A model generated the notes under the pieces. The model worked only from the letters and a program-made list of their open reading frames with translations, was not told where the DNA came from and ran no database searches. DNA of 49,474 bases, counting the filler, from Bipalium vagum (lineage: Eukaryota): assembly GCA_037834085.1 (NCBI GenBank). It is 2 parts of 2 records of this genome, joined end to end, with 100 filler letters (N's around TTAATTAATTAA, not from the genome) between each part and the next. Parts side by side here need not be neighbours in the genome. Positions count along the whole stretch, not along the records: positions 1 to 28,189 come from JBBMKC010065432.1; 1 more part is not named here. One strand, 5' to 3'. The translations under genes were made by a program, and so were the position numbers. Within the stretch, counting starts at the first letter, position 1, and the number at the start of each line of letters is the position of its first letter. Positions 1,064-37,300 of the stretch are shown piece after piece.

Positions 1064-2502
1064 CATTATGATAATAATTATCTTTAAAACGGAATGCCAA
1101 TCAGAGTGTCCCGTAACAGAGGCCATGTCCATAGCAACTTACAGGGCTATCCAGAAGAGGATTTTGTGCGCCTTGACCCACAACGTTACTGGTTCGCTAA
1201 TTGAGAAAGGAGAAAATATAAATAAATAATAACAATCGCCTGTATTAAAACAACGTTCCTACTAAAATAAAATTATTGCCATCAAACCGAGTGTCATCAA
1301 CATTTGCACGCTTAAAATCCCATAGACCTTTCTGATAAAAGCTGAATGAAAAAAGAGTTTCTTAACCGGTATCATGGCAACGTCAAACACATACCTAATC
1401 GAATGGACTTTGAGGAAAAAATGAAATTTGTTCCCCCTGAAGGATGATGCAAAGAGGAATGTGAACCTGAACGAAAGTGAAATTAATTAAAGGACGTTAA
1501 TCAAAATTAATTAAATGTCCTCCTTATTTCACACGAGAATTAAAGATGAAAACATTCATGTTCAAACAGATATACTATTTTTAACCAGAAGTCTTTAATA
1601 ACAAGATGCAGCAATCTGATTGGTGGCGTGAATTAGTTAAGTTACATTTATTCGCGGTTTTATTTGTGGGTTTATTTTTAGTATCAGATAATGTCAAGGT
1701 CAGTGGTGGAATCACTGAAACGAAACGGGCAGCAAAATTTGATCAATAATAAAAAATTATAATCCTTCAGTTAAGGGGCGTAAAATATTTCAAAGTATCA
1801 AAAATTTCTGACACAATCGAGGAGTGAATCAACTAATGGACTAGAGGCATTCCATCAATATTCTGAGATTGTTAACAATTACACCCAAATCTCCATTTCC
1901 TTTTAATGAGTTGCTGATATAATTTTATTGTTTCTTTTCTTAATCTGTCGAGCTGATGACCAGATTTAACAACGTTAGGGTTTTAGTGCTATATAGGATA
2001 ACCTAGCATCATGACGATATTTTCTCCGCGAGTAACCACAATGCCAGAATTGATTTCTGATTTGTCTTTTGAATTAAGGTTCATAGGATAAAGTTGATGT
2101 TTGACTGATTTCTGAGTCTTATTTTGAAAACCATTCTCCGTCAAAGAATCTACACTAAAAGCTGCCAATATCTTATTTTTTGGTTGAGTAGAATTTCCCC
2201 CAGAACATTTAGAGGTGTCTGTTCTGTAAATTAACAGTTTTATTTTATATGAGACTGCTTTTCAGTATTTTGCTTAATCACAGGGTTGTCCATAGTAGTC
2301 AGAATACCAAAGGATATTTTTTTACTTACCAAATGCTTTCCGAAAATTTTCCTTTTCAATTGATAACCTCTCTCACTTTTCGAAATAAAGACCTCTGAAT
2401 TGCCAAAATTCATTTCTTTCCTTCACTTCAACGAATGAATACAGACTTTGGAAACTTACAGTCAAACCAATGACAAATTCAGTGATCTCCTTTTATGAAG
2501 TA

Positions 2503-3240
2503 TATCATCGAACTTCTATATTGGACCACCACATTTGAAAAGTGGTCTGGAACCAGAAGTTGGCACAAAGTACCAGAAACATTATTCGACGTTGACAGAT
2601 AAAAAAACCATAAAACCGTGTTTGGGTACTTATAAAGTGCCTTAGTAGAAAACATCTAAAATAAAACAACGATAGGTCCAATCAATAATGAGTGATATAT
2701 CTCACCGTTTTTGAATCAAATAATTCGTACTTTTTGTTTTATTCCATGTTCTTTTCGTAAATCCATCATGAACTTACTTTTAAAGCAATGAGACAGTTTT
2801 ACATTTTGCGACAGATACGGCTTCGTGAGTTCACCCAAACTGAAAAGATGTTAAAGCGTCAATGATATCGGGTATCTTTTCAGAATCCTCGATATATGAG
2901 TACGACTTCACCATTTTATCTTATTGAAGCAGTGCAGGTTCTCTGTCCAATATCTGATCAGTAGATTCTTTTAGATCAGCGACAGCTTCCACTTTCTTTA
3001 CCAATGATAATCTTTGACAAAACGATTTGTTCAACATGTTTTAGTGGAATCCTATGAAATTGACAATATCATCTTTTTCTTAATGCTATTGTTTCGTCAT
3101 TCTTGATTGTGAAAAATCTCAAATACCAAAATGTTATATTAAGGATTTTATTTTTATATGAAATTATCGAGAAATATGATAATAACAAATTAATGGTGCA
3201 AATGTAGAAGTTGGTCCGATTATAGAAGTGGCCCAAATCA
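2503..3240 (-). mobile_element. Decayed pogo/Tigger-like element
   Basis: Inverted-repeat pair AACTTCTATATTGGACCA (~2511) / TGGTCCGATTATAGAAGT (~3212). Minus-strand remnant MLNKSFCQRLSLVKKVEAVADLKE...PDIIDAL resembles the pogo/Tigger N-terminal HTH region. Frames are broken. Confidence 0.5.
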
Positions 3241-3277
3241 GAAAATGGCTCATAAATGAGTCATAATATGAGGTTAC

Positions 3278-6200
3278 CTACGAAGTTGAGGTTTTGAAAA
3301 TCTGTAAGCGGAAGTTCAAGATATCATATTGCTAGTAGTGTTAAAATGGTGTGTTACGACCAAGACCAAAATCTTAATGTTGAATATCGAATGAACCCAA
3401 TTTGGTTTCGATCTTTTTCAATTTTATAAATATTGAATATCGAACATTGAATATCGGCGTAATACTTCATTTTAACACTACTTACAGTTTTTTTTCATTG
3501 ACTTTTCATCTCAATTTTTTATTTTTTAATTATTATTTTTGATTTTTTTATAAATTCGAATTTTGTGAATTTCATGATTTATGATTGTAAAACATTACCC
3601 ATCAATCTATCTTTTTTTTTAAATGGATGAAAAATATTTTTGTGAAGTTTGTAAAACATATCAAACTATAACAAGAGTAAACATTTAAATACAAACATAC
3701 ATTTTAAAAATAGTACTAATAAAAATACTCTATCACTAATGAAAACATTAATCTAAGTACTAATGAAAAAATAAAAGAAAAATATCAAAATTTTTCTAAA
3801 AAACAGGGGTGATTAAAGATTTGGGGCTATTCACAATCAGCTATTCTAGATAATAAATTTTTTTAAAAAATTTACAACAGGAAAATATCCAGGAGAATTA
3901 CATTTAAAATCCTTAAACCCTATTAATAAAAAATGCTGTGCACCAATTTACCAGAACAGGATCAAATAATATTAAACTTTTAGAAAATAATAGAAAAGTT
4001 TTAGGAAATCCAATTTTTTTTCTAATTCCAAAAACTTATTCAATACCAATAAACAGAACAGAAACGATATTTTTCTAAATTTTTTTCAAATCATGATTTT
4101 AAATTTACTTGAATTGTTCTGTGAATATGGAATTGATACAACATCAAATTTATGAAAAATTAAACTTACTGTTTGTTGGTATTCTTATTGGAAATCTTGA
4201 ACGAAAAATATTATACAATCTGAAAACTTAAAAATCAATTTAACCAAGTTATCATTTAATAGAGAATTTACAATAATATTGATTGTACATGAAAATGAGT
4301 ACACAATCAATGATGCTATAAATTTTAGAACAGCAAATAAGTATCCTATTTTTGATTGATATAATATTTATAGGAACTATTTTATAGTTGATGAAGACCT
4401 TTACTGAAAATTTTTGTTAAAAGTTATAAAGGAACGGATATAATATTTAAAGGATATTTTAATTCATATTTTTATTATAATTCTGAAGGAAAATATTCAA
4501 GTAAATGTAGAGAAATCAGTGGGAATATTAATTTATGAAATTATACTTTTTTATCGTTAATTAAAAAATGATGAATTAATAGAAATAGAAATTTTTATTA
4601 AATCTTTTTGTAAAAATTTATTTTACAATTTAAAGTTCTCAAGATTTTTCAATATTTTATTATAAAAATTAAAAGATTCAACGACGTTGTCAAGGCCTTT
4701 GTTCAAAAATTTTTTAGATTATGCTATAAAAGATAATGATGAAAAACAAAACGACGTTTATGGAACATCTTCAATGTGTAAATCAGCTGTCCTATTTACC
4801 CAAAATTAGAAATTGACATATTCTCAAATCAATTATTGAGAAATTAGAAAAAATAAAAATGGAAAATTTTATGAATGAAAAAAAATGTTGAAGATTTATA
4901 AAAACATTTTGAAAAATTTAAATATACTTTTGTAGATTCTCATTTAAAATTAGAAAATATTTTTATTGGAGGACTTTTACGAATTGGAACTTCTATTATG
5001 ATAGTAATACCAACTTTTGGAACCAATTTATTAATTTATGTTCCTGCTGCAACATCAATTTTTGGACCTGTAAATTTATTTATTGGAGAAACAATTAGTA
5101 TAGGAATTACTTTTCAAAAGAAAAAGATATATCGGGAAAATGGGGCTACAATAGAATCATCATTTAATAAACTTTATATATTTCAATTAAAAGCATTAGA
5201 ACATAAAATATTATAAAATTATTACATAAAATATATGTAATGAAGAAATTGAACAAACGAAAATAATTCTTAATGAATGTAAAGAAAATATTACAAAAAT
5301 AAAATCAGGAAATATTATTAAAAATCAAAATGAAGAAATTAAAAAGGATTTAAAACGAAGTTCTCATGATGCAATAGCAGAATGCAAACGCAATTTTCTC
5401 CATGCGGGAGAAGAATTGAAATAGTTGAAAACCGATTATAATGCAATAAGCTCATACAGATCTAGCAAAGCTGTCAAGGTCTTCGACCGATCCAACACAG
5501 TAGTCAAAGCTTTTATGCGATCCCGCTGATTCGATAAATTTTAAAAAATAGATGTGAAAAAAGTACTAAGAGGCTTAGCCTACAAAAAACAAAATTCAAT
5601 TGATCTTAAAAAATGACTTGAAAATTTAAAAAATTAATAGGAACAAAAAATTAATTTGACACTAATCAATTAATTCAATAGAAAACAGAAAGAGGATTTA
5701 AGATTTAACATATTTTCATTAACCACTTACTGGTCCTCTAAGAAATTAATATAAATGATAAAGCTAATAAGAAAAATATAATAGATGGACCACATAGTGG
5801 TTGGAAGATTCACAATAGGTTTAAGTGTACAAACTACTTCACTATTTTTAACTTTTGATTTATATACTTCTTTATAAACACCAACCAATTACTGGAACAT
5901 TAATAATAAATGAAATCCGATTTTTGGTTATTAAAGAAGATTGAAAAGCATTTTTAAAATATAATAATCCAAAAGATCCTAAATCGAATGATGAAACATT
6001 TTTTGAATCAACTGAAAATTTAAAATTAATAATAGAAGGAATTTTAATCTAAATAGAGACACGATATTTAAAGTAGAAGATTTGAGTAATTATCTTCAAA
6101 TAATAAAATTATCAAAATCTAGTTTATTTATATTAAATTTCGACAAATTTTAAAATAAACATTTACATCGAATCTCAGTTAAATTACCGGATTTCCCCGA

Positions 6201-9200
6201 AAATCCGCTCCTGGGTTATTTTTGCAAAATTAACCTTGTTTAAGAAAGAAATTATTCCAAAGTATTTACATTAAAAATATAAAAATCTAATAAAAATTAA
6301 ATATAAAATTAAACAAGATTGACAAGAATATAACATTTATAAACCGAAATATTTAGCTCTTCAATTTGTAAATTTAAGAAAATAAAAAGGTGGTCATGAT
6401 AATGTTCATCATTTAATTTTAATAGATTTAAATAAGTTAAAAAAATAAAAAGCATATTCTGATTAAAATATTTTCTTTCTAAAAATGGAAGATTCTCTAC
6501 AAAAAATATCAAATCTTTTATCTCAAATATTTTCAACTTCATTTTAAAAATAGATAAAATAAATATTCTAATTATAAATGGAAACAAAACTTCCTATTGA
6601 AATGTGTAAAACGGCTGTAAATCTTAATAAAAAATGTTTCCTTGTCTTACAATCTTGTATTCAAAATGACTAAGAAAATCATGTTTTTGAAAAATTCCAT
6701 TTTTCTACTATTGAAAAATTTTTTTTTTAATTTTTTTTTGAGGAAACATGTGTTTTAACATATTCTTCCATGTATTTAAATATAAACTAATTTAAAGTAA
6801 TTATAATTATATATTTTCATCATTTTATGTATATTACAGGGGTGGCTCCAAAGATATAGACGACATCGTATATTACATTTAGAAAAGAATTTATTTGATC
6901 CCTCTGAAAAAAAAATAAACAGAAGACTAAGTAGCTATGATAAAAATAATTGTGGAAATTATTATTTCAATGAAATAAAGAATTATCTAAATTTAATTAA
7001 ATATGTCAATGGTTGTTTTAAAGCTAAAAATTTTGAAAATATTAAAACACGATATGATAAGTACAATAAAAAATACAGTATGGGAAGTGTTATAGATTTT
7101 ATAAACCAAAATATATACTTGATCAATTTAAATCTTTAATAAAATATTTGTGTGCTAAAAAAGCTGGTGGACGATAATGTTGATTATTTAATTTTAAAAA
7201 TTTCAAAAAAATAAAAAAGAATCAGTAATGAAATTATTTGAAAATGTTAAAGTTAGATTTGATCTAGATTCTGATTTAAATATTTTATTTTATTTTTCAA
7301 AGCAATGAAAGAATTTCTACAAAAAATATGAAATTTTTTATCTCAAAAATTTTCAACAACATTTTTTGTAGAAAGTTAAGAGAAACCTATAACCACTAAA
7401 TCTTGATCCAAATTTTAACTATAAGTTAGCTTTAATTTATTTTTCAACTTATAATTTTAAATATGTTTAATTTTAATGAAAAATAACAGAATAGATGTAA
7501 CTGTTACAAATTCTAAAGGAAATAAAGAATCTCGTAAGATAAAGATAACTCTAGGAACATATGAAGTTTCTGATATATCTGCATATATTTAGAATGGATT
7601 TAAAAGTATAAAAGAATTTGAACCATTAAAATCAGAAGAGTTTATGTAAAAATTAATTATAATCCAATTTCTTCAAACAGTGTAATGAAAATATCTAAAG
7701 GTTGTATTCTTTCTTTTCCAGAAAATTCAATTGGTGAATTAAAAAAAAATCTTATAAAGAAGGTTATTATGAATCAAAATTAGTAAACATTTCAAAGATA
7801 AATAAAATCATGATTGATTGAAAAATTTAGAATGAGGATTTTATAATGATAGAAGAACAAATATTATTTTTGATTTTCTTTTGAATGCTGTTCCAAGAAG
7901 ATAGAGAATCATTGATAGACCAAAATTCCCAATTTAACATCTTTTAATTACAAAAGAAAAATTTAATAAAGTTTAATGGAGAAGACATCAGTTTTACTAC
8001 TTATTTGAAGCAGACTAAACCTGCTGTCAACAAAGCTTGTTAAGCAAAAAACAATGAAAAAAAATTCTAACACTAACTAAAACATAAATTTATTGCATAA
8101 GATAAATATTAATTTATATTATTTCCGTTAAATATTATCATTTTAGGTATGCTGTACCAAAAATTGCTGTACAAATCAATAATAATTAATTGTTTGTGAA
8201 TATGTTGACCTATTCATGCTTCACTTTAGGTTGATAACCACCATACAGAATGTCTGAAATTATTTTCCAAACATTTTCTATAATATTCAAATCTGGTGAT
8301 GTTCATGGCCAATTCAGGACTTGAAAAGATTGTGTTTTCGAATATAATTGAAATCGTTTTGAAACATGGATTGGATAATTATCCGGAATCACATGACAGC
8401 CTTCATGACAATCGAGATTGATAATGGGTACATCGAAGTCTTTGAAAAGACTAATGTATTTTTCAATGTCTTTTTTTCCTTCCAATATTTTGACAGCAAG
8501 TAGACCGTTTGGCACAGTCATATCCCACACCATAATTCCTCCACCTTGATATTGACGTTTTTGACATGGAGATGTTTCCCCCTTCTTAACATACGAAAGT
8601 ATCATATATCATAAAAGTCTTTAAAATATCAATAATTATTTAATACCTGTTGTCAGTTCGTCAAGACTGAATCTTTTTTCATCAATATTTGACATCAATA
8701 TATTTTATTCCAAACAATATTCTGTCTAATCCACTGTAAAACCAAACGATTTCTTTTCAATTTATGTTTATTAGAAAGCATAATTTTCTGTGCAACCTTT
8801 TGATACGCATCTCATTCTTCAGCATCCATTTATTTAGTGGACACATCTATATTGGTTAACTGCAATACTTTGTTGCATGCAGTCTTATGATAATTATCAG
8901 TCTCTTTTTGATATAGGTCTTCTGTGGTTAAGATCATCAATCTTCCTTATATTCCTTTTTGGTTCTCGCTCTGCTTGTGAGTTTTTAATTTGTATGTTAA
9001 AATAGTTTTAATTGCATTCTTTTTCATATAAAAATCTACGATTCACTTAATGAACATTTGTATATGACAATATTTCTTAATTCCTTTGAATATATACCTA
9101 AAATTTTATTTAAAACTATAAGTAAAAATTTACTTACTGTCAGAAAAATTTTTTCCAATAATATTTTATAAAATTTAAGAAATTACATTTGTGATATATT

Positions 9201-9278
9201 ATTTAAACAAGTCTTCAAAATGTAGATATATAACAAGTTTCTAATGAGCAAACGAAAACAATAAATATTAACAAGTTT

Positions 9279-9309
<31 letters not shown>

Positions 9310-12300
9310 CTTTTATCTACCACCTTTTATCTCAGAAATTACAAGTGTCAGAAAAATAGTTTCCATCAGTATATGATATTTTTAAAAAAAGAATTATTTA
9401 TCTATGATAGTTTAATATATCTATTTCCATGTACACTGAAAATTGCGCCTAGTATTTCTTTTTCAATTAATAATAAATGATCACATGTATCTTTTTTAAA
9501 ATATTTTAATTTTACATTTGAAAATTTTAATCCTATATTTCATATTTAACCTGGAACTGAATGACAAGGAATCTCTACCTTGAATGGCAAATTGAAAATT
9601 AACAAAAAATCATGAAAAAAAATGAAAACAGTAAAAATCAAATTGGATTGACATTTGGAAAATAAAAATTAATAAAATGAAAATCAATGAAAAAATCAAT
9701 AATCAATGAAAAAATGTGATAGTAGTGTTAAAATGAAGCGTTACTCTGGTGTTCGATATTCATAAAATTAAAAAAATCAAAATCAAATTGTGTTTTTCCG
9801 ATATTCGCTATTCGACGTTGGGGTTTGTGTCTTGGTGGTAACACCCCATTTTAACACTACGATGGCTTTACCTTACAACTCTGTTACTCGTAATGTTAGT
9901 TGAAGTTGTCTTTGGTATGGAAACTAAAGCTTTTAATTCAAACGATAGCCTTACTTTGTTGGGTCGTGTGGGGACCGTACTGTGCATCTGTAGAGAAAAT
10001 ATATTAAAATTTTATTAATTTCATTATGGTCTTCACTTGGCTGTTGAGGACCATACATCGGGTAGGATGCATCTTTGAAAGAGCGTCAAATATACATTAA
10101 TAAATATCATTTTTACTGAGATGCTGAGGTCCGTAAGCTCCGAGCGGAACATCTTGAAAGAAGTGATCAATAAATAATTGTTAATTGTCTTTACTTTGGT
10201 TCTGAGGACCGTAAGGACTGTTAAAGGCATCTTTAAAGAAAATATTAAAGCGAAACATCAACTATATCTTCTGACTTGGTTGCTGAGGTCCGTAAAAGCC
10301 TTCGGAGGTTCGTCTCAGAAAAGATTAATACTCATTTCATATTTAATCTACCTTGGCCTTCTTGTTGCTGTCCTGTTTATTAAAAAAACTGAGTTAAGCT
10401 TTATAAATTTTATTAATAATTAAATTTGATTAATTCCTCGTTGAGTCTGAGCTCCGAATTGAGTTTGTAACTTTAAAATTGCTTTACTGACAACCTCTGT
10501 CATTACAACTGAGCAGCCTCTCATTACAATTATATTATTTCATTCTGTCAGCGCGTATGGGACATTCCTTATTCAAGGGTAATAGACCGTTATCCTGCTG
10601 GGCATCCGGCAAATTTCGCAAAAAACATTTACGTCGCATCTCAGTTAAATGACCGGATTTCCCCCGAAAAAAGCCCCGGGATTATTTTTGCAAATTCAAC
10701 CTTTCCAAAAATAAACTCGGTTGAAAATCAGCCCCGGTTTATTTCTGAGAATATTTCATAAAAGAATTGCTTTCAACAAATATCTCCAAATTTTTAGGTA
10801 TTTTACATTTTGATGGATTTTTTAAACCTTTAAATATAACCAATGTTTTGGAAAATGTACCAGCGAATGATATGGTTACAGCCACAGTAAATCTCGTTTT
10901 TTCATCACCTGTGGTACGAAGATCGGTATTCTGTTCTCCTTTAACAGAAATGGTGCTCCATCTCATCATATCTGCATAGGTCGCCATTTCGTCCATATTA
11001 AAAAAAATTTCTGCCTCTTTCTTTTAAAAAAATTTTTAAAATTAATTTAATCTATCAAAAAATATTGATAAAACAATTTTATCTTAAAGCGAAAAACTTT
11101 AAAAAAATAAGCCTTGGTCCTATTTTCGAGTGGGATTATTTTCGGGGAAATCCGTAAGCAAAAATATAAACGAACTTTTAAATGTAATGTAATTATTACT
11201 CCGGTAAATAAGGTAATTATAATTACATGAAAATAAAAGCATTAAAATAGGTAATTAAAACAAGTGGCGCCTAAAGGAAGTTATAATTCATTTATCTATA
11301 TCATTTAATTCGGAAATCCGACTCTGAAAATTAATACTTTTAATTTGATATCCACGACGATCAGTTGAATTGACAACGATTTATTAATTTTATCACACTA
11401 TAACACATAAAAGCAAGTTTTCTTCGATTTGATTGGTTTCTCATATTCTCAACTGTTTTTTCCTGTCTCAGCTTCGGCTTCTGTTTTTGATTTTGTAATT
11501 TTCTTTTTATTTACTCCATTATTACCAATTGATCTTCTATCACCCAATGATGTTAATGTAATATTTTCTTGTTGATATAAATAAATGTTATCGCTATCTG
11601 ATTTCATATAATTGTATTGTGTCATCCTGAAATTCCTGTGAATTTTGGCCAAGAAAATTTAAGAAAAAGTTCTAATATTTTCTTGGTCTTGCACGGTCAT
11701 CATTTTCAAAGCTGAAGTTGCCACTCTTAGATTTTTGAAAATGTCTTTTTGTTTATCTTTCACTTACAAAACTATCGCCCACGGCGAAGTAAATATTTCT
11801 GGTTGCTTCTCATGCATTATGAAGTGTTCATGAAGAATGCAAATTCAAATACGTTCAACTATGCCCTGGAACAAATAACGTCTCATTTAAATCGAACTGC
11901 CTACCTAAAGAAGAATATGGAAAAGCCAAATTGGCGCTTCAGTGTGACATATTAAAACAATTATTATCATAAAACTGATTGATTAACAAATCTTTGAAAT
12001 GATAAAGCTGAAATCCGTCATTCTCTTTGGGCCAGCCGATAATTCAATGCTCAATAATGAAACACGGAGAGAGCAATGGGAAAGTGACGACTGGACGATG
12101 AAGATTTCATAGATTATTAGGGGGTCTGGTCAGATCTCCACCTGCTCTCACATCTCAAAACATTTCTTAATAAGCTGTGACTTCAGAGGAGTTATTTCAA
12201 AAGCCTTACCCAAATCACTTTATACAGTAATAATGAAAGGTGAAGTGTATCGATCTTAAGGGATGTAATACTGAATAATAAGATTTTTTAAACATTGGCG

Positions 12301-12673
12301 TGTTGATTGTTTCAGAGGCCGTCGTCTTACCTTGATACTGGGCACCGTATGGTAAGGGTCCCTGATCTGAAGATAGAAGGCAATAAAATCGACCAAAACG
12401 CCGACGTCCTTACATTGTTGCGGAGATCCGTACTGGTAATCTGGAAACATGAAAATGAGACTGGTAATCAGATAAAACATTCAACAAACATTGATAAGCG
12501 GGCTGGTCTTGTCGGGGTTGTCGAAAAAAGAGTATTAGAAGCGAGAACCGGTTTCAAAATGAACCTACTGTTGCTTTCATTCTCGTTCGGGTTTGGGCCT
12601 GCACAAGGGGACACAATCAACGATCCACATAATTAAGATCAAAGGCAAAATCCTTCTTACGTGACAGTTCCAT
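3278..12673 (-). CDS. Micro-exon gene encoding a low-complexity YGPQ-repeat protein (3' end unresolved)
   Basis: Predicted coding exons (minus): 12673-12661 (ATG in CCATGG), 12598-12569, 12507-12490, 12440-12414, 12366-12331, 10470-10437, 10372-10352, 10313-10276, 10230-10195, 10152-10117, 10072-10037, 9987-9955, 9923-9872, 3301-3278. Probable 5'UTR exon 12785-12741. All acceptors are AG; all donors are GT except one GA (10436). The spliced frame is open: MELSRPNPNENESNNQPAYQYYQYGSPQQYQGPLPYGAQYQVTNSIRSSDSTRTATRRPRRTSEGFYGPQQPNAFNSPYGPQNQNVPLGAYGPQHLNASYPMYGPQQPNAQYGPHTTQQISIPKTTSTNITSNRVVRFSKPQLR. The repeat core varies mainly at third codon positions. The join between the 12.3-12.7 kb and 9.9-10.5 kb exon clusters is inferred from phase and composition. 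Confidence 0.75.
4900..5320 (+). pseudogene. Decayed hydrophobic/coiled-coil ORF inside the Maverick
   Basis: ORF 4998-5216: hydrophobic stretch followed by ...ESSFNKLYIFQLKALEHKI, continuing in a shifted frame as EEIEQTKIILNECKENITKIK. Resembles by eye an accessory ORF of invertebrate Mavericks; assignment is pattern-level only. Confidence 0.35.
7480..8018 (+). pseudogene. Maverick minor capsid (penton)-like gene remnant
   Basis: Broken frames read KIKITLGTYEVSDISAYI ... EGYYESKLVNISKINKIMID ... GFYNDRRTNIIFDFLLNAVP ... IIDRPKFPI ... FNGEDISFTTYLKQT*, following the motif order of Polinton minor capsid proteins. Multiple stops and frameshifts. Confidence 0.65.
8100..9372 (-). mobile_element. 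Tc1-like (DD34E) element nested in the Maverick, decayed
   Basis: ORF 8303-8605 GGGIMVW...VIPDNYPIHVSK...VLNWP, continuing past a stop as TSPDLNIIENVWKII, gives the Tc1 QDN.P.H and WP..SPDLNPIEN.W motifs. Confidence 0.8.
10653..11154 (-). mobile_element. Internally deleted pogo-family element in an intron of the micro-exon gene
   Basis: TIRs CCGGATTTCCCCCGAAAA / TTTTCGGGGAAATCCG-TA. ORF 10739-10996 (N)MDE...KGEQNTDLRTTGDEKTRFTVAVTISFAG...LVIFKG is the pogo DDE_1 signature. Confidence 0.85.
11490..11650 (-). pseudogene. Possible Maverick protein-primed DNA polymerase B C-terminal remnant
   Basis: MKSDSDNIYLYQQENITLTSLGDRRSIGNNGVN resembles the pPolB C-terminal pattern (RS..H.IY....K..LS..DDKR.I...G.T). 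Short, pattern-level match. Confidence 0.4.
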
Positions 12674-13084
12674 GGAGCCAACTGTCCCTGAACACGCTTG
12701 TCGAAGAACAGGTGCTACCTTTCCAAGCAGAGTTCCTTACCTTTGAAGATCCTTTCTCTGGCTCACTTTGCACTGCGATCGACGTCTGCATGAAAATCAC
12801 GAAAGGAAACACCTCCTACCTTCAAATCTCGTCGTTATGAGTTGACAGATTGATAATAACAAATCGATTGATCAATCGATAAATCAATTAATTTATTGAT
12901 TATATTTAATTATCCTCAAACAATNNNNNNNNNNNNNNNNNNNNNNNNNNNNNNNNNNNNNNNNNNNNNNNNNNNNNNNNNNNNNNNNNNNNNNNNNNNN
13001 NNNNNNNNNNNNNNNNNNNNNNNNNNNNNNNNNNNNNNNNNNNNNNNNNNNNNNNNNNNNNNNNNNNNNATATTAATAAAAAAA

Positions 13085-13085
13085 A

Positions 13086-13116
<31 letters not shown>

Positions 13117-13122
13117 AATAAT
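13085..13122. repeat. (AAT)n microsatellite beside an assembly gap
   Basis: Visible run after the N-gap 12925-13069. Confidence 0.85.
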
Positions 13123-14274
13123 TCATTTAATATTTATTTATAAATAAATAATTTTAATAATAACTTTCGTTTAATAATAACATTTATAGTAACATTTGTA
13201 ATTATTAGGAGGGTGCAATGATTCTGGTCTAAAGTTAAAGTAAGCAGTAGCGTTGAGCATTTTATCGCCTCTGTGTATACATGTAGCCAGGTTTATGAGA
13301 GAAAGTCATTTAACGATGGAAAATACTCCGATTGATTGCAGCGTGCCTCTTCGACGTCAATCAAACACCAGGGTGGTCAACACTCTTTAATTAATGCACC
13401 CTCTTCGTTAATGAATGAGAATTGTGCTAAAACTTTACTGTGACTGTTTCTCGAGTAACTTTACCTTTTGTTTTAAATGACCAAAAATAAATACCTGTGC
13501 TCGGCGAACTCCAAATTGATAAAATCTGAGGCGGAGTCACTGTTCAGCGGAGGACAGCGGATTCCTCAGATCAACATAAAAATATTTCCGAAATGTTACC
13601 CGGGACGCGGTAACTCATAATTATCAATCAACTAAATATGGAAAAGTTCACTTTAAACAAAAGCCAAACACAAACCACGGGCCACCCTTCGGTCTTTTCT
13701 CACCTTCAACCCTCAACCCTCAACCCTCAACGGATGTCGGAGAGCGCTCGGAAATTGGACCGCTAAAAGTATTGCCAATGATTTTTCCTTGGTGTTTTTT
13801 TCCATTAATAATCAATAAATTTATTTGGGGATTTTTAAAATTGATTAAATTATTAAAAAATAATATTTAAATTATATAAATAAAAATATATTTTGTAGCA
13901 AAAATATTTTAAAAATAATTTTTCAATTTTAATTTACATTAAAAAATATCTTAATTTTTTTAATTAATTTATTAAAATTTAAAATTATTTCAAAACTTTT
14001 TTAATTAAAAAAAAATATTTTTTTTAATTTTTAAAATTTTTTAATTTTTTTTACTTAATTAATTTTTAAAATTTTTTTTTCAGTTTTGGATTTTTATTAA
14101 ATTATATAAAAAATAAAATTTTTTAAAATTATTTAATTAAAAATATTTTTGTGAAAATAAAGAATAAAAAAAGCGCTCTAAAATCAAAAATTATAATAAA
14201 TATATTTTAATATTTTTTTAATATATTTAATATATATTTTTGAAAAAATATTAAAATATAATTTTAATAATTAT

Positions 14275-14277
14275 TAA

Positions 14278-14309
<32 letters not shown>
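14275..14309. repeat. (AAT)n microsatellite ending a ~500 bp almost pure A/T tract upstream of the PLK gene
   Basis: Visible in sequence. Confidence 0.85.
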
Positions 14310-14311
<2 letters not shown>

Positions 14312-14398
14312 TAAGTTTGCGGTCGAGGAAATTTGTTTCAGTAATATTTTTATTGGATTTATTTTTTCGCCACAGAAATACTTGGTAATATCTCCACA

Positions 14399-16321
14399 AT
14401 GTTTGCAACCCTGCCGAAGATCAGTGATCCGGACACTCATGAAAGATTTGGAGTCGGAGTGCTCCTGGGAACGGTAAGCAAGCTTTGATTTGTGCTTGGT
14501 AGGACGGTGCTGACGGTCTTGTTTTTCGATAGGGAACCTTTGCTAACTGCTACGAGCTCTTTGACAGCAACAACAAGCTCTTTGCTCTGAAGAGAGTAGC
14601 CAAACAGAAATTGTTGAAAAACCCCTTACTCCTGCGCCAGCTCAAAGATGAGATCGCCATTCACCGGACCCTGGACCACGAGAACATTGTCAAGTTCCAC
14701 AGCAATTTCGAAGACAAGTACTTCTTCTACATGATTCTGGAGATCTGCATGCAAAAGGTTTGTCATGAGGCATTGGATTTGAAAGGTTTACCATCATTTT
14801 TCCCTTCAGTCGCTGAGGGAGCTGAAGCAGTGTCGGTTCAAGATCACGGAGCCCGAGACCAGATACTTCTGCCGCCAGTTGATTTTGGCGTGCGACTACC
14901 TTCACATGAGAAGGATCATCCACCGAGACCTGAAGCTGGAGAACGTCTTTCTCAATTCCGAAATGGTCGTCAAGCTCGGAGATTTTGGACTGGCAGCTCA
15001 ACTGACGTCCGACCACGATCGACGGCGAACGTTTTGCGGAACGCCAAATTATGTCGCTCCTCATGTGCTGGCGAAGAAAAGTTACAGCTTTGAGGCCGAC
15101 ACGTGGTCGCTGGGGGTGATAGTGTAAGTTTTTTGCTTTTGATTCCGACAAAATTGACTGTCCATAGGTTCGTACTGCTCACAGGATCGTACCCCTTCGT
15201 TGCTGATTCCTTGTCGGAAATGTACAGCCAAATAAAGAAAGCGCAGTACGTTATCCCCGACGAGGTGGGTCATTCGGCTCAGGAAGTCATTCGGTCACTG
15301 CTTCAGATCACCAATATCCCCACCATGAAATCGTTGCTGGAAATGCCATTCTTCAAAGAGTACACTCCAAACGTGTTACCCACCTCAGTTTTGTCGAGTG
15401 CCCCTCGTTTTGACAGCATCCTGACCCCTGAGCCCGTTAAAATGGAAACGAGAACTTTCTACTCCGAAGCTGGTATGGCCTCCGAATATTGCTTCAGTGG
15501 TTACAAGAACGATACCGATAAGAGGAACGGTCTCACCAATGACTTGCTGGTGCAGCTTCGAAAGCTGCTGACAAATGTCGCGGTGTTGGAAGATCTGCCG
15601 TCACAAATCTCCAGACAGAAGTGGCACGAGACTGTGCAGGACCGTGCTTTGACCCCCGTGTTTTGGATCACCAAGTGGCTGGACTACTCTCTCAAGATGG
15701 GCTTTGGGTACCAACTGAACGACTCCTCGGCCGGGGTGGAGTTCCTGGACAAGTCCCGCCTGATTGTGACGACCAACGACGATAACATTCAGTACATCGA
15801 TCCGGACGGTTGCGAGGCGCTGTACACTCGCCTAAATTTCCCCAATCAACTGTTACAGAAGCTGGAGTTCCACTCCTACTTCAAAAGGTATATGTCGGAG
15901 AAGCTGCAGACAGTAAGGGTTTTCTTGGTACTAACAAACTGATTCCTGTTTTCTAAGGTCGGCAAAGACGTCAGCAACTCAGAAAAGGATTCCATGGTCC
16001 GTCTGCCATTCCTGTTATCGTGGCAGAGGAACGAGAAGGCCATCATTTTACTGTTGAACAGCGGCACGACGCAGGTGAGTGATTTCTTTTCTTGTCAGAA
16101 CAATACCATGACACAACATCCTCCTCGTTCAGATCAATTTCTTCAGTGACCACGTCAAGGTCATCTTCTGTCCCCATATGAGGTCCGTGACCATTGTTGA
16201 TGAAAAAAAGGATTTCAAAACGTACGCCTTTTCCAAGCTTTACCAAAGTGGAATGACAAGATCACTGAAGAGCCGCATCGAAAAGTGCATGGAGGTGATG
16301 GAGAACTGGGTGAAGAATTAG
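14399..16321 (+). CDS. plk: Polo-like kinase (PLK1-type: kinase domain + two polo boxes), ~554 aa, 6 coding exons
   Basis: Exons 14399-14473, 14533-14757, 14810-15123, 15168-15912, 15958-16074, 16133-16321 (1665 nt, open frame). GT-AG introns of 59, 52, 44, 45 and 58 nt. Motifs LGTGTFANC, FALK, HRDLKLEN, DFGLA, RRTFCGTPNY; polo box 1 WITKWLDYSLKMGFGYQL; polo box 2 QINFFSDHVKVI. AATAAA at ~16470. A possible acceptor (cacag, 14375) leaves room for an extra upstream exon. Confidence 0.93.
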
Positions 16322-28365: not shown

Positions 28366-31300
28366 TTATTGAATGTGGCCAGCAAATTTATTGGGATTTT
28401 CAATCTTGTTTTACTTATGTTGCTCCTCGGTCATTGGAATGCTTGCTTGCAGTTCTTGATCCCAATGCTCAGAGACTACCCTTCAGATAGTTGGGTGATC
28501 AAATGTAAATTGAAAGTGAGTTGACCAAGTCCGATTTATTTGGTAAATATTAATTAATGATTTATTCAATAAAATTGTGATTATGTCGATGAAAATCAAT
28601 GGAAACATACCCAGTTTCCTTGAATTATTATCACGTAATTATTCGATAACAGTTTCATGGGCCCAAACCACGGGTTTTCTAGCCAAATAATCATACAGTT
28701 ATAATCAAGAAGTTTGTGGCATTGGGAACATTGTATAAAATTTTGAAGATTATCATTTGAAACCTCTCTCGATCTCATCAAGCAACTTTCTGTGATGTTC
28801 ATTTGGATGGTCTGAGGTTATGTTATTGGAAAGGGTTTCTTGACATTTCATACATTGAGAAAAATCATCTCTCATTGGTGATCACAAATAATATATAAAT
28901 AAAAAGAGACAGTATTCTTCTAATTATTCGAAAGGTAAATTATGGTTACGCTTCGGATAATCGGAAAGACAAGTACAAGATGTACGACCTAAATTCATTT
29001 GAACAAAAAAAAATTATTATAACACGTTCTTCACTCTATCCTACAATACTTTCAATAGTAGTCGTTCTCCGTCATTGAAAACGCCATGTCGATGAACAAA
29101 GCTGCTGAGGTCAGCAATTCATTCATTCGCTGTTGCTGGTGAAATATCTTCTGAATGTTGTGCATGGACAAAATCGAAATTTGCATCTGCATTAGTAACA
29201 TTGTTTGCCTCTAAAGTGATCTGAAATCTCAATGTCATTAAGACTAAATGTTCATCTTTCTCTTCAACATTTCAAAAATCTATTTCCGATGGTTTTATTT
29301 ATTTTTTTAAAATCTAAGCAGAATTTCTAATTGTTACGTCTCTCTTTTAATTAGTTTATTTATTTATTTTTAAGAATTTTATTTATATTATTTTTATTTG
29401 TATTTATTAACAAATTAAAACAAAAAAAACAAACGAAAACAGCAAAAAAATCACAAAAAATTATTTTGTTTTAATGACAAACCACTTTATTGATCTTTTT
29501 AATATTTATTGATTGGGATGATCTGAGTGAAAAAGATTTCGAATTTTTGTTAATATGATCCTGATTTAGACTAAATTTTATCTAGGACGCTTACTGGTTT
29601 GACCAATATACCTGGGCACTGTTCAAAGCCATGTCACATATGTTGAGTATTGGTTATGGTCGCTATCCTCCCACAAGTATTTGCGAGGCTTGGATCACCA
29701 TTGTCAGCATGATGACAGGAGCCACTTGCTACGCTTTGTTTGTCGGTCACGCTGCAGCTCTGATTCAGTCCTTTGATACTTCCAAACGACTCTATAGAGA
29801 AAAGGTTGGTCGGCAATTAGAATTAGTATAAATAAANNNNNNNNNNNNNNNNNNNNNNNNNNNNNNNNNNNNNNNNNNNNNNNNNNNNNNNNNNNNNNNN
29901 NNNNNNNNNNNNNNNNNNNNNNNNNNNNNNNNNNNNNNNNNNNNNNNNNNNNNNNNNNNNNNNNNNNNNNNNNNNNNNNNNNNNNNNNNNNNNNNNNNNN
30001 NNNNNAAAAGAATTATATTAAAAATTATTATTAATTATTAAATATTAGAATTAAAAAATAAAAATATTAATTAAAATTGAATGAAAAACTTTAAATTAAA
30101 TCAATAACAGAACCAAATTATTTATAAAATTAAACGAGTCGTTTCCATAATTAATTAAATTACAAAATTTTTTCAAAAATGTTTGATCAAGGTAGTGCAG
30201 TCCTTTTAAAAAGTCTGTTCACCTCCTTTATCAAGTGTAACTTTTAATGGAAATGAATACAGGTTTTTTTCACTTCAATTTAAACTATTTAATGAATTGT
30301 CTAAAAGAAATCTTGGTGATGCTTGTTACCTTTGGATAACACTAGAATTCACAAAACAGTAAAAGTTCGAGATTTTGTGAAAAATTCAGGGCATAAGTTA
30401 ATTTTTTAACTCCTTCTTCCCCAATGATTGATCCAATTAAAAAGGTATTCTCAAAGGTAAAGTAGACTGCACGACATATTTTAGTCGAACATACAATAAA
30501 GGAGACCTTAAGGGATGTAATAAAAATATCAAGTAAAATAGTAACTGAAATGGATTGTAAAAAATATTACATGAATGTGAACAGAAAATGACCATCAACT
30601 GCTCCGGAAAACCGCCTATAATGTGCACTATGTCTAATGCAGTGTAATGTTTTATTATTATATTATGATAATACTTTTTCTGTTTTTATTTAACAGTTTA
30701 GAAAAAGATTATTTTGAAATGTAAATTAATAGTTTAAATTGAAATGTAAAAAGTTTAAATTAAAGTGAAAAACCAGTAAGTTCAGATCTTAAGCGCTTAA
30801 ACAAGCGGTCGCGTGCATATTTTCATATAAACTTCACAAAGTATCCCGTATTTTTCTTCGGTACTTTTTTCATAATAAAATAATGAATAAAAATCACCCC
30901 CAAACGATCCTTATCTGGGATAAATGTTGACATGTTTAGATCTAAAAAATCTGAATATATTAATATCTAATGAAAATTTACTCTAATAAATAACGATTAT
31001 TATATTAAAATGGATTAAATTTGATTTCAAAATTATATTAAGATTTGTGTCAATGAATCGATTTTTTATAAAATAATAAATATTACTTGTGTATACATAA
31101 TAAAAACTGAAGATTCAACAGTCTTTAAAGGTATATTCGAATTTTTCCATTTTATGGAAAACATTACTTCGTAGGCTGCTGAGAAAGTTTGTGGAATCTA
31201 ATACTTGAAAAAGACAAATTAAGCCAATATATATACTACTGGGGTTATCGATTGAAAAAATGGATTCCAGAAACATTCCCACTTGATAAGAATCTTGAAA

Positions 31301-34300
31301 TTTCAATCCTGTTTTTACTATTATCCTTATTATTATTACTATTACTCTTATTATTTGTTTTATTATTATTATTATTATTTATAATAATTTTTTAATAGTA
31401 ATATTAATTTATTATAATATTATGTTTTATATGTAATATTAAATAAAGTAAAACGAAATGAAAAAATAAATAAAACATTCCCAACGATTTAATTTTCTCT
31501 AAAGTCCAAATTCAATAGATTTAAATTGAAAAATAAGACCAGAAAATAAGGACAAGGGGAGAGACCTTGTTGGGTACGCTGAACGTTATTGTACATTTGA
31601 TTTTAATATAATGTTTTCAAATAATCCTTTTGTCTCACCTTCATTATTTCTTCCTTTTCCTTTAATTATTTATTGGTGAAAATAAAGATAATTACTCCAC
31701 CTCCTTTCGTGACTGAAAACAGAAGTCAGGAGAAATCTGTGAAATGAGTTTGATTTTTTCATATGAAAGAGAATATTTCCACGGAAAAATCTGCCACCAG
31801 ATCCCTCTTTTTGAGATTCAAATTGATAATTCAACTGAACACTTAGCACCCCTGCCCTTCGAGCTTCGCAAAGACATTCGGACAGATCCTTAATTACCCA
31901 CAACCTATTTCCAGCCCAATTTTGCCCCACTTTGCAAAGATAATGGGCATAAAGCCGCATATCGCATTTAATTAATATCAATTATGTTAATTATTTTCAT
32001 TTCATTACGACTCCTTTGGAAAAGAATTCAGATTTCTCAGTCTCCGCAGGAATTGTTTTCGAATAAAAGTAAAAATCGACGAAAATAAAAAAAATTAGTA
32101 AAAATCTTTCGTCACGTAACCTGACACTTTGACGCTAATTGGGAATGGTGGTCTTTTCTTTCTAATTTCTCTTTTAAATTAATTATTATCATTATTATTA
32201 TTTTATTTCTTTATAATAAACACCTCCATTTCATTTTGAATCTGGCAATCGCAGATCTTTACAACAAAATGCTTCTTGGTGTGCTGATGATAAGGAAATA
32301 ATAAAAAATATTATTATTATTATTATTATTATTTATAATTACTATTACTATTATTAATATTGTGCCATGGTGGAGAAATGCATACATAAATATGTTCAGT
32401 TGATTTGAAAATGAAAATCTGTTGGTGCTAGGTCTAATAAGTATGGAACATTATCAAGTGTTTCATACTCAAAGTTATACAAACTGGGAATTAATTCAGG
32501 TTTCTTTCTTCAATAATTTATTGATGTTAAAAATCGGACATTGTATTTGAGATTAAATAATTACATTGGATTATTTAAACAAACAGATTATTGGATTCCG
32601 ATAAAATTTCACAGATGAATTGAGCACGTTTTTAGTAGATTCAGATATAAAATTGTTTAATGTACATCAAAGGTTCTCGAGTAATGTTTGGTATATTTGC
32701 TGAGTGTTTTCATGGAGAAAGATTTCTTTCCGATTGATCAACGCTGATTGTTGATGTTGAAATTTTTTGTGCTTTTCAACTATTTCTCGTAAATACTTCT
32801 AGGCAGAAATGGTCTCAGTAAAATTAAGAAATTTCAGGTCATTGAAATTGGTGGTACCACAAAATATCCATCATAATGTTTTTGTGTGCCACGATAGACT
32901 TATAAATTGTGGAGGTTATTTATCACGCTCCACTTATTGAGTAGGTAATCGTCGGTTATCATTTAATACCCATTTCTCATTTTCGATAATTGTTGTCAAA
33001 TGAAAATCATCAACTTCTGATCTCCTCGACACTTCTCATTTTCGAGTCTGATATTTTTGCCCGAAAGTTTTCAAAACATTTACCTGCTGTACTTTATGAA
33101 GTTGTTGGACCATCGCATATTGCGATTGTGTTTCTTTATTTTTTCAAGGCTTTTCGAAGAGGTTTGAATTCATGTAACAGAATGATCCAAATTTCTGATT
33201 TCGAAAACTTTTAACATTGTTTACAAATAAATTAATGCGTTTAAACAATCATCAATAAGGTTGCTATGGGGAAATTTATATATAGTAACTAATCTGAAAG
33301 GATTTTAACAAAACCAAGATAAACCAAGCAATTTGAAAACGCCTATTAATTTTATATCAACCTGATAATATCCAAACTTCATGAATTTTGATGAAATAAA
33401 TATTATGAATAAAATTTCATGAATAAAATATGTACTTCTATGAGTATGTTTTTCAATATATATCTCAATTGAGATGATTATATCAAACTATCGCATCTCT
33501 TTTGTTCTCAATGTCTCATTCAACTGTAATATTTTCAGTTCAAGCAAGTCGAAGAATATATGGCGTACAGGAAACTTCCTCGGGGTTTGAGACACCGAAT
33601 CGCCAACTACTACGAGCATCGCTACCAGGGGAAAATGTTTAACGAGTTGGACATCCTCAGTGAATTATCAGAATGTCTCAGAGAGGTATTTTTCATGTCA
33701 TTCGATTTCTCAATTTCTTTGAGATAATGGTCTTTTTGACATTTCACCCGTTTCTCATGTCAAAATTAACGAAAATCGTATAAACAATTTCCTAATTCCA
33801 AACTCTTTTTATCAGCAAATCATCAATTACAACTGTCGAGCTCTGGTGGCTGCCGTTCCATTTTTCACATATGCGGACCAAAATTTCGTTTCAGAGGTAG
33901 TTGTCAAACTGCAGTACGAGGTCTTCCAACCCGGAGATCTGATCATTAAAGAAGGCAATTTGGGAACTCGGATGTATTTTATTCAAGAAGGTATTGTAGA
34001 CATCATAACCAAGGAAGGAGAGGTTGCAACAAGTCTTTCAGATGGTTCGTATTTTGGAGGTAAAGGCTTCATTGAAGAACATGTTTTTTTTATTTTTAAA
34101 AAATTATTTTCTATATTTTTTATCAAAGTTTTTTATCTTTTTCATGGTAATAATATTTTTTAATTAATTATGTTTATTTCCTTATTTTATTTTCATTATT
34201 ATTATATTTTTCGAGGTCCAAAACAGTTTTAAATTATTAATAATTTCATTTGAAGAATACTCAAAGTGTGAGAAAGATAAAACTATGATTATTTATTCTA

Positions 34301-37300
34301 TTCATTTTTCTTTTAAATCATTTAAATATTAAACTTACCTCTATCATAAGACCTAGCTTTGATTTTGTCATTATAATAAAAACATTTATTATAAGACCCG
34401 ATAGGAAAGATTTAATTTATTAGTATGAATAATAATAAAACTTAAATTTCGTTTAAAAAAGGTAATTGATTAACAATCATCATATAATTCTATAAAATGA
34501 TCATTCATGAAATCGATAAGTTTTAATTGTACATGTTCTGCTTCTGCATCAACACAATCTTCATATGTTAATCAGAAATTTCTATTAATAGAATATTCTA
34601 AATGAAATGAAGGAAATAAACTAATTTGGAAATTATTGAAATATTTACACAAATAAATACAGCCAATTAGGAGGTGTGGCTTGTAACGGAAAACAGAGTA
34701 AATTATAAAAGCAATGTTACCAAGTAAAATAAAACTTTCGGGAAAAATTAACATAATTTAATTTAAATAAACAACAGATGATCCTGAAAAACTCAGGCAC
34801 CTGAATTATACTTTAACAAAAATTAGTAATCTTAAAAAACTTTCATCGATTCAAAAATCTTGAATACTCACACTTATATACATTGTTTTGATGTATTTTG
34901 ATGCTTTTCCATTGGATTTTTTTCATTAAATTGTCATAAAGAAGATGATAAGCAGTACGTGTACAAAAACTAATTATTAATTTAAAAGAAATTGTAAAGC
35001 GCGGAACATGAATGCCATCAATTGTGATGGGGAGACTTTGATATATGAAAAGCTGTTGAGAACCGATGAAAGCGTTAATTCTGATCGTTGGGGAAACAAA
35101 TAATTTGAAATGGTCGAAAGATACAGGCAAGTAATTTTATTTCATGTCATCGCGCCGATAACTCACTTAAAACGAATTAAAGACAAGCCAATGAGGCGAA
35201 ATATCAAGACCTAGCAACTGAATTTGGAATTCTGACCCGATCAACCTTTTCCATATAGACATTTAATCTCGGGTATCTTGAGTCGTGAGACTCCAAAAAC
35301 GGCGAAATTATCAAAACACTAGGTCTTAAAGAAGAAAAAATAGATATGATAGCAACGGTCCTTTTAGCATCTGTGATTACCCAGAGCTACCATATATATA
35401 TTTCATATGAATTACGCAACTATTCCTTATATTCATAAAAGATTGGTTCTTCTTTTATGCCTTAATCTTCCGATTGATAACATGCTCACTTACCAGAAGA
35501 TATGTCAAGACTTATTCCCCTTAAAATTTTTAATTACAAATTCCAAGGACTTTTTGCGCACCCTATAAAAAAGGAACAATGTTCTTTGAAAGGTTAGCTT
35601 CAAGACAAAAAAAATCTATCCAGATGACATCAACAATTTCCATAAAAGGACAGAACAAATGCACAATTACATTTGAGATCCTTTCTTTAAATAAATAAAG
35701 TATTTTTTATGTTTCTCTTGAAAGAGTCGTGTCACAAATTTTGGTCTTATTAACCGGTACATCAAATTAATATTTAAACAAACAAAGTAGGTAAAACATC
35801 AAAAGAAAAGAAAGAAATTCTCGGTTGACATTAATGGGCTGAAAAATTAAAAGAAAATAATAAAGTCGGACCTTGACACATGAAGCCTCCACCGACGTCG
35901 TCTCAACCCCGACAACGTTTTCATGTTACAATTATCAATGAGATTCCGTCGTTTCTCAAAATAAGCCTTCTGTCGCCAGGATTTATTAATTCTTAATTAA
36001 TTAAGGAAATTTATTTCAAATTTATTTGCCCCCGAGGATTAGTACTATATTGGATTGAAATCAACATAAAGATCGTGATTTGACTTCGGTGAAATGTGGT
36101 CTTCAGAAATTACCTCCTTGGGCAAAGTAGCTGCGATTCCCAAGGAAGTCTTCTGTACTGCTGGTCTGGAGCGTTGTTTACGACTCTCCGCGCTCATCGG
36201 CCAGCCGAAGTGGAATATTAAACAAAGAGAAAATGGGGAGAAATTCATTTAATTACTCTTGTCGCGATTCCTAATTAATTAAAAAGGCGAGATGCAATTT
36301 TCTGCTAATAGAAACTTTATTTGCAAAGTTAATTTTACGTTTTCCTGAATATTATTAAATATTAAAACATTTCCTGTTCTGACTGTACAGAATCCTTACC
36401 CTGCTTGCAGCAGAATGAAAGGTTCAGTGGGATGAGGAATAATTACTTTTCGTATCTTGTCCATGTCTCACTTCAAATTATTTTTTTTATTTAATTTTAT
36501 TATGAAATAATTATTAATTTATCATTTAAGATTTTATTATTATTTCTTTTTGTTTTTGTTTTTCTATTTATTTATTTTGTTTTTTTATATTAAAAATATT
36601 TTTGAAAAAGAAAAATTATAACTTCTCTAATTAATTTATAAGCTAAAAAAATATCTATATATTATTATTATCAATATTAATATTATTATTATTAATATTA
36701 TTATTATTATTACCATTATAAAAAAAATATAAAAATATCTTTTATTTATATTTATATTTAAATAATTAAAATTAAAATGAATATGCGATTAAAGGCATTT
36801 GAAATCGTATTCTTTATTATTATCTCTTTAAAATTATTTTCGATATATTAATTACGATCCTTACTTAGAGATTTTGCACATATCCCACCAATCCGTTAAA
36901 TAAACACGTTAATCGAAAACGTTTATTAATCGCACTATAGTCCAGGGTCGTCTAGATAAGTCCGGAACATTTTCAAAGTTATATTAAAAGAAGATTATTT
37001 GAGAGATCACTATAATTATTTTGTTTAAGTAAGCTTATTTATCAATAAAATAGATTGATCAAATTCAATTATTTAATATTAATCATGGATTCAAAATATG
37101 AACGAAGAACAACAGTGTTGGAATCACTCCTAGTCGGAAAAAATTCAAAAGAAATAATTGAATGATTTGGTTGCAACAAGATTAAAGTTTATGGACTGGC
37201 TGAAAGGTATAACAAAATAAAGGACACAAAAATATTTAATGCCGAAAAATGTCACAATAAAGGTTCTGGCCACATACAAATCCTGGCTAATTTGAAAATT

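Follow-up and report, generated by a model that had tools for sequence, protein, structure and literature searches.

The window analysed here, a stretch of 49,474 nt from the genome of Bipalium vagum (assembly GCA_037834085.1), carries on its minus strand a chain of very short exons and, downstream of it, three exons with the signature of the Lifeguard/TMBIM membrane proteins. An intact Polo-like kinase gene with five introns of 44-59 nt lies on the plus strand at 14399-16320, divergent from the Lifeguard gene. The 3' part of an HCN channel gene is also found on the plus strand (28369-39125), with introns of 111-4461 nt; one of its exons, encoding 81 residues, has its best matches, at 90-91%, in flukes, Macrostomum and the monogenean Cichlidogyrus, which marks the host as a flatworm; none of the 120 matches listed, of 991, is identical to it. 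On the minus strand, a protein kinase gene is located at 25777-22795. It has FRN at the catalytic-loop position and DFE in place of DFG, and may by these motifs be a pseudokinase. The minus strand also holds the last exon of a homeobox gene at 47364-46771 (Pfam Homeodomain, E 3e-15), paired-like by eye. Transposon debris is represented by a DDE_3 fragment (8608-8306, E 0.022), a Tc5-type HTH (41007-40723, E 1e-7), a fragment that looks pogo-like by eye, without Pfam support (11023-10742), and a 97-nt repeat whose two copies at 6141-6237 and 10607-10703 are 81% identical.

The array and the mini-exon chain

The initial annotation had described a tandem repeat with one unit per exon. All five minus-strand units and their five 12-nt cores were recovered where they had been placed, at 10313-10276, 10230-10195, 10152-10117, 10072-10037 and 9987-9955. 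In array order, the units measure 38 (with the boundary as first drawn), 36, 36, 36 and 33 nt, and successive cores are spaced by 81, 78, 80 and 76 nt. The introns in between, all GT..AG, measure 45, 42, 44 and 49 nt, within the claimed range of 42-49 nt. Likewise, four of the five units start with AG|AT, all five end with A|GT, and AAT is the codon at each of the four internal junctions. The codon pattern YGP(Q/H) occurs five times on the two strands of the window, every time inside the array. In 60 dinucleotide shuffles of the window, it occurred 0.17 times on average and at most twice, and none of 5000 shuffles of the 359-nt array region contained at least two matches.

The repeat as first claimed was real but incomplete, five upstream mini-exons and the host gene having been missed. 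The array makes up the 3' half of a run of ten consecutive phase 1-1 mini-exons of 18-36 nt (12598-9955, minus strand), all of them divisible by three. In the 14-exon model, exons 2-12 are all phase 1-1, and its 171 codons contain no stop. The mini-exons were ranked among 7542 symmetric candidate segments (AG..GT, 9-90 nt, stop-free), collected on both strands and in three phases and scored on the composition of 19 named Lifeguard tails. The upstream part of the model reads as follows:

12661..12673, minus strand: candidate first coding exon, 13 nt, with an ATG at 12673 and a phase 1 end
12569..12598, minus strand: mini-exon 2, 30 nt, phase 1-1, rich in N, P and E, weakest in composition (rank 141 of 7542)
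12490..12507, minus strand: mini-exon 3, 18 nt, phase 1-1, rank 13 of 7542, with a weak AAG acceptor (-3.4)
12414..12440, minus strand: mini-exon 4, 27 nt, phase 1-1, a YG-type motif variant, rank 5 of 7542
12331..12366, minus strand: mini-exon 5, 36 nt, phase 1-1, a YGxQ variant, rank 2 of 7542
10373..12330, minus strand: intron of 1958 nt with transposon-like debris and strong splice sites (9.9 and 7.8)
10352..10372, minus strand: mini-exon 6, 21 nt, phase 1-1, a Q-rich spacer, rank 19 of 7542
10276..10299, minus strand: array unit 1 (exon 7), 24 nt counted from the AAG acceptor at 10302-10300
10195..10230, minus strand: array unit 2 (exon 8), 36 nt, phase 1-1, YGPQ core
10117..10152, minus strand: array unit 3 (exon 9), 36 nt, phase 1-1, YGPQ core
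10037..10072, minus strand: array unit 4 (exon 10), 36 nt, phase 1-1, YGPQ core, rank 1 of 7542
9955..9987, minus strand: array unit 5 (exon 11), 33 nt, phase 1-1, YGPH core

Nine of the ten mini-exons are thus placed within the top 30 candidates by tail composition. An in-frame ATG at 12450 provides an alternative start. Mini-exon 5 is a probable older relative of the array units, and the DNA profile of the array matches it weakly (E 4.2). The 1958-nt intron contains no tail-like exon candidate, the best one inside it ranking 350 of 7542.

Unit 1 as first drawn (10313-10276) is a real repeat but, at 38 nt, it does not share the phase of the other four. Using an acceptor 14 nt further downstream restores the phase and leaves a unit of 24 nt, from 10299, after an intron of 52 nt. 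The scores of the two candidate acceptors are similar (0.1 and -0.8). By the DNA profile, 10313 seems to be close to the site that corresponds to the acceptors of the other units. A one-base assembly error in the run of four T at 10297-10294 would equally vindicate the 10313 boundary.

The splice sites of the array are weak (donors 1.0-4.0, acceptors -2.6 to 7.1) when scored with a matrix from only 15 introns, taken from the Polo kinase, HCN and second kinase genes together with two Lifeguard membrane-domain introns. The lengths of these controls start at 44, 45, 52 and 53 nt and extend to 4461 nt, so the array introns can be considered ordinary minimal introns, comparable to those of the Polo kinase gene. 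The joined Polo and HCN control frames have no stops. Reading TAA as glutamine would give the array a sixth unit at 9909, which had been considered by eye; it was dropped because the host is a flatworm and the standard code fits the controls, four joined control coding sequences being stop-free under it. A crude ab initio exon chaining over-predicted and missed the full model, and its codon score did not set the true membrane exons (0.02 bits per codon) apart from the doubtful LSm-like frames discussed below (-0.02 to -0.09). It was therefore used for boundaries alone, and it agrees with those of mini-exon 2 and with 10299 for unit 1.

The Lifeguard exons and the putative long intron

Downstream of the array, the following features complete the model:

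1467..9954, minus strand: putative phase-1 intron of 8488 nt (donor 8.2, acceptor 14.0)
1395..1466, minus strand: exon 12, 72 nt, phase 1-1, a linker and the start of the Lifeguard signature
1263..1341, minus strand: exon 13, 79 nt, the FIRKV motif and membrane helix 1 of Bax1-I
1143..1196, minus strand: exon 14, 54 nt, a loop and the start of the second helix

The Lifeguard/TMBIM signature (SIR..FIRKV type) is present before and within the first helix, and exon 12 aligns to the region directly before this helix in named Lifeguard proteins. A custom HMM from 23 named Lifeguard proteins was run on 2677 six-frame peptides of the window. Exons 13 and 14 are the top two of these peptides (E 6e-8 and 0.026), followed by one with an E of 2.0. 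Spliced together, exons 12-14 (67 residues) reach E 6e-23 against the HMM, with 54% identity over 54 residues to the best named Lifeguard protein. Against Pfam, exon 13 alone matches positions 3-25 of PF01027 (E 0.0052), the sole family at E<=10, and its score misses the whole-domain cut-off because of the short length (25 residues); exons 12 and 14 have no Pfam match singly. For the exon 13 region, a representative protein library gave one Bax1-I fragment (E 5e-4), and the leads in the Atlas all scored below 0.9, a Bax1-I cluster ranking 13th among them. A homologue search with a 40-residue stretch ending in exon 13 returned one candidate and no match; nothing was found in the PDB with exon 13, and no protein in the databases searched was a close match to it. 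In a tree of 54 columns and 21 rows, the sequence of the window forms a long unsupported branch, which assigns it to no named subfamily. Lifeguard proteins have six to seven membrane segments and a C-terminal SPE[ED]Y pore motif (PMC5451544). No further Lifeguard exon was found among the 2677 peptides, and the window holds helix 1 and the start of helix 2.

Exon 12 needs an upstream phase-1 donor because it starts in phase 1 and no in-frame ATG precedes the first helix. Within 520 nt upstream, its only ATG-led feeder has a donor score of 0.6. After unit 5, all 11 local acceptors score below 0, and the acceptor of exon 12, at 1467, is the highest-scoring acceptor of the model. Between the array and exon 12 (1467-9954), the best minus-strand phase-1 candidate ranks 158 by tail composition. 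The HCN and kinase genes of the window hold introns of 1.1-4.5 kb; an intron of 8488 nt would be about twice as long as the longest control (4461 nt). The predicted tail, which depends on this long join, has 128 residues, 52% of them P, G, Q or Y, and it is hydrophilic (maximum 11-residue hydropathy 0.15). The tails of 17 named Lifeguard proteins have 68-128 residues and 37-74% of P, G, Q and Y. None of these 17 contains the YGP motif, and PPPY, present in all six named fluke Lifeguard tails, is absent from this model. A likeness in low-complexity tail composition is not homology.

Most of the 8488-nt interval is occupied by a 6.1-kb segment with 23% GC. It is flanked by two arms in inverted orientation, at 9860-9659 and 3335-3539, which share 72% identity across 218 nt; inside each arm, the terminal 14-15 nt recur in inverted form. 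The segment is probably a decayed mobile element. The arm termini resemble Polinton/Maverick ends; a small non-autonomous element present in two copies could also account for the arms. Searches with the open reading frames between the arms gave nothing meaningful in Pfam, in PHROGs (12 pieces, best E 0.007) or in the Atlas. Two pieces on the minus strand, at 2655-2482 and 2065-1992, resemble by eye the two halves of an Sm-fold (LSm1-like) protein; a 5-nt direct repeat bounds the stretch of about 420 nt between them. The second piece (stretch ~2057-2007) weakly matches LSm1 in the PDB (phmmer, E 0.78) and nothing in Pfam, and the first has no database match. An intact LSm1-like gene inside the 8488-nt intron would count against the join, and the two pieces are possibly an interrupted pseudogene inside it.

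The mini-exon chain might instead be a separate small low-complexity gene resembling a micro-exon gene, or a tail-only isoform, ending at a terminal exon at 9909-9896. A 45-nt intron ending AAG|AC after unit 5 fits the array pattern and leads to a stop three codons later, and the membrane exons are 8.5 kb off, with the possible LSm1-like remnant in between. However, the acceptor of this terminal exon scores -7.0, no AATAAA lies within 600 nt (ATTAAA occurs only from 9531 on), and the low hydropathy of the chain leaves no hydrophobic signal-peptide stretch. The Lifeguard exons would, in addition, remain without a plausible N-terminus. We consider this explanation improbable. A reading of the chain in phase 0, from an ATG at 12791, seems more improbable still: it puts the variable core columns at second codon positions, which changes amino acids, and it stops at the last codon of exon 12, before the membrane domain, although it is open through the ten mini-exons and was preferred by the crude ab initio search. 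If translated, this frame would be an overlapping upstream open reading frame. Given the exons with their phases and open frame, the Lifeguard identity downstream and the tail-like composition, all of which are observed, the array very likely corresponds to exons 7-11 of a flatworm long-tailed (GRINA/LFG1-like) Lifeguard/TMBIM gene, ten mini-exons of which encode an N-terminal tail of about 128 residues. In this gene model we infer the join of unit 5 to exon 12 over 8.5 kb. The tail is probably disordered and cytosolic.

Selection on the core and origin of the units

Differences between the units had been said to fall at third positions and to reflect constraint on the protein. This is borne out for the four-codon core, where all four third-position columns vary and none of the eight others do (p = 0.002). 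The core has a pS of 0.51, a pN of 0.05 and a pN/pS of 0.09, calculated from 10 non-independent pairs and on a core picked for its similarity. Neither claim extends to the whole unit. The non-core codons of units 2-4 show pS 0.78, pN 0.63 and pN/pS 0.80, near saturation; their pairwise differences are distributed over codon positions 1, 2 and 3 as 13, 13 and 16, and the whole exons are identical at 18-21 of 36 nt. The reading frame is fixed independently by the phase continuity with the Lifeguard exons, and reading the core in the other two frames gives amino-acid changes. Selection keeps a short motif inside a drifting spacer.

Growth of the repeat by duplication of exon and intron together had also been proposed, and the exons and splice sites speak for it. 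Units 2-4 have identical lengths of 36 nt and an identical motif offset. AAG acceptors and an A at donor +5 are each found in three of four array introns and in one of 15 controls (p = 0.016 in both cases, for features chosen post hoc). Furthermore, a DNA profile made from units 2-5 and their introns retrieves unit 1 and part of its upstream intron (E 9e-4). The intron bodies, on the other hand, are no more similar to each other than controls (mean z 1.68 for 6 pairs, against 1.24 with an SD of 1.11 for 21 pairs). Equal length, motif offset, the A|AT junction and the oddities of the splice sites indicate that the units descend from one ancestral exon together with its intron, and exon+intron duplication, at an old date, is likely the best reading of these sequences. 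One 36-nt exon with a short intron would have been duplicated in tandem, repeatedly, which may have been tolerated because each unit is frame-neutral. Afterwards, intron bodies and spacer codons would have drifted to saturation, and selection would have retained the YGP(Q) core.

Two other origins can be weighed against this one. The peptide repeat may have arisen within one exon, with introns gained later at equivalent positions, as could be suspected from the dissimilar intron bodies and from the human GRINA tail, which sits on two exons (PMC6719933). Such a history has little probability: three exons are exactly 36 nt long with the same motif offset, all junctions are phase 1 with A|AT, and non-consensus splice features are common to the array, within which the profile finds unit 1. 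The regular period of 76-81 nt would also be expected of a non-coding satellite, or of a gene-conversion tract, that imitates codons. This is hardly credible here, as Tandem Repeats Finder reported no array of this period, no further copy was found in the window, and the exons (44-56% GC) differ from the array introns (20-27%). The high core pS argues against conversion, which would even out third positions too. Duplication of exon and intron remains our preferred reading for the origin of the units.

Comparison with known systems and possible function

The gene resembles long-tailed Lifeguards (GRINA/TMBIM3/LFG1, insect Lifeguard 1-like and fluke FAIM2-like proteins) in its signature and first helix, as well as in its long hydrophilic N-terminal tail, rich in P, G, Q and Y and matching in length and composition (PMC6719933). 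It differs from them in its units, which are YGP(Q) here and YP or PPxY there, and from human GRINA in the distribution of the tail over eleven coding exons instead of two (PMC6719933). The C-terminal tail of synaptophysin has a repeated YG(P/Q)QG motif; a literature search on the motif gave no match. This near-identical motif also lies in a cytosolic tail, but the fold is different and the terminus opposite, which leaves an analogy only. Identities with SS18/QPGY-domain proteins and with synaptophysin had been considered by eye and were dropped upon finding the downstream Lifeguard exons; in the stop-to-stop frames of 12640-14400 (including a 145-nt N gap), no obvious four-helix membrane domain was seen by eye.

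The layout is also reminiscent of the micro-exon genes (MEGs) of Schistosoma and tapeworms, with tandem symmetric exons of at most 36 nt that are divisible by three (PMC4699917, PMC5825161, PMC7653826). Compared to the strict criteria of PMC4699917 and PMC5825161, ten consecutive exons here, of 18-36 nt, fall within the 6-36 nt range and are symmetric and divisible by three, but the coding fraction and the signal peptide set the gene apart. Mini-exons make up 297 of an estimated 1029 nt (29%), against about 80% in schistosome MEGs, and the first 110 residues contain no hydrophobic stretch by hydropathy. Schistosome MEGs also yield protein variants through exon skipping. Unlike the schistosome products, which are secreted or lie at the surface, this one seems to lack a signal peptide and would be the cytosolic tail of a conserved membrane protein; its conserved motif also contrasts with the rapid diversification of MEGs. 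An operational rule asks for at least seven exons and a run of at least four exons below 70 nt and divisible by three (PMC7653826); the model has 14 exons and a run of ten. Under a further condition of this rule, 11 of the 14 exons in the window qualify, and the exons for the last ~170 residues lie outside the window. As a whole, the operational rule probably applies. Human disordered regions built from tandem symmetric exons (PMC3632108) share duplication, low complexity and short motifs with the array, which differs from the human survey in that exons and introns are both near minimal size.

Lifeguard membrane domains form channels of internal membranes that handle calcium and are related to cell death; their N-terminus lies in the cytosol (PMC5451544). 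By analogy with the family, the domain encoded here may act as a Golgi, ER or endolysosomal calcium-leak channel and a regulator of cell death. In human GRINA, two-thirds of the tail is P, G, Q and Y and it is predicted to be disordered; YP repeats that bind ALG-2 are also predicted in that study (PMC6719933). The flatworm tail could be a multivalent ligand, with tyrosine motifs in series that each have a low affinity for trafficking or calcium-sensing partners, and the YGPQ units may serve as repeated low-affinity docking or self-association motifs. Single-unit skipping is conceivable because the splice sites are weak and the phases symmetric, and it would alter the number of motifs. Planarians have regulated microexons (PMC4978528). 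That a conserved housekeeping channel has gained a module resembling a micro-exon gene, in which each YGPQ unit is a skippable cassette and combinatorial splicing sets the valency of the tail, perhaps with a tail-only isoform ending at 9896, is a speculative and rather doubtful proposal.

Both the protein family and the evolutionary process are known. The locus illustrates how tandem duplication of symmetric exons can build a disordered tail, with selection acting on a four-residue motif only. The micro-exon-gene-like layout of a Lifeguard tail appears to be new, as a modest variant. No report of a Lifeguard tail on micro-exons was found in the literature searched, a scope to which the tapeworm micro-exon-gene listing does not belong; in the excerpts of PMC4699917, mentions of micro-exons and of lifeguard are unconnected. 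If the cassette proposal is true, the gene would provide a tractable example of the flatworm micro-exon-gene architecture starting inside an ordinary gene. At face value it is a useful annotation case: the 5' third of a known gene is divided among ten exons of 18-36 nt, and gene finders would overlook or shorten it. Regulated skipping of the units would raise its importance, since it would connect an ordinary conserved gene with the micro-exon genes of parasitic flatworms and offer a one-exon-one-motif system for testing the binding of Lifeguard tails.
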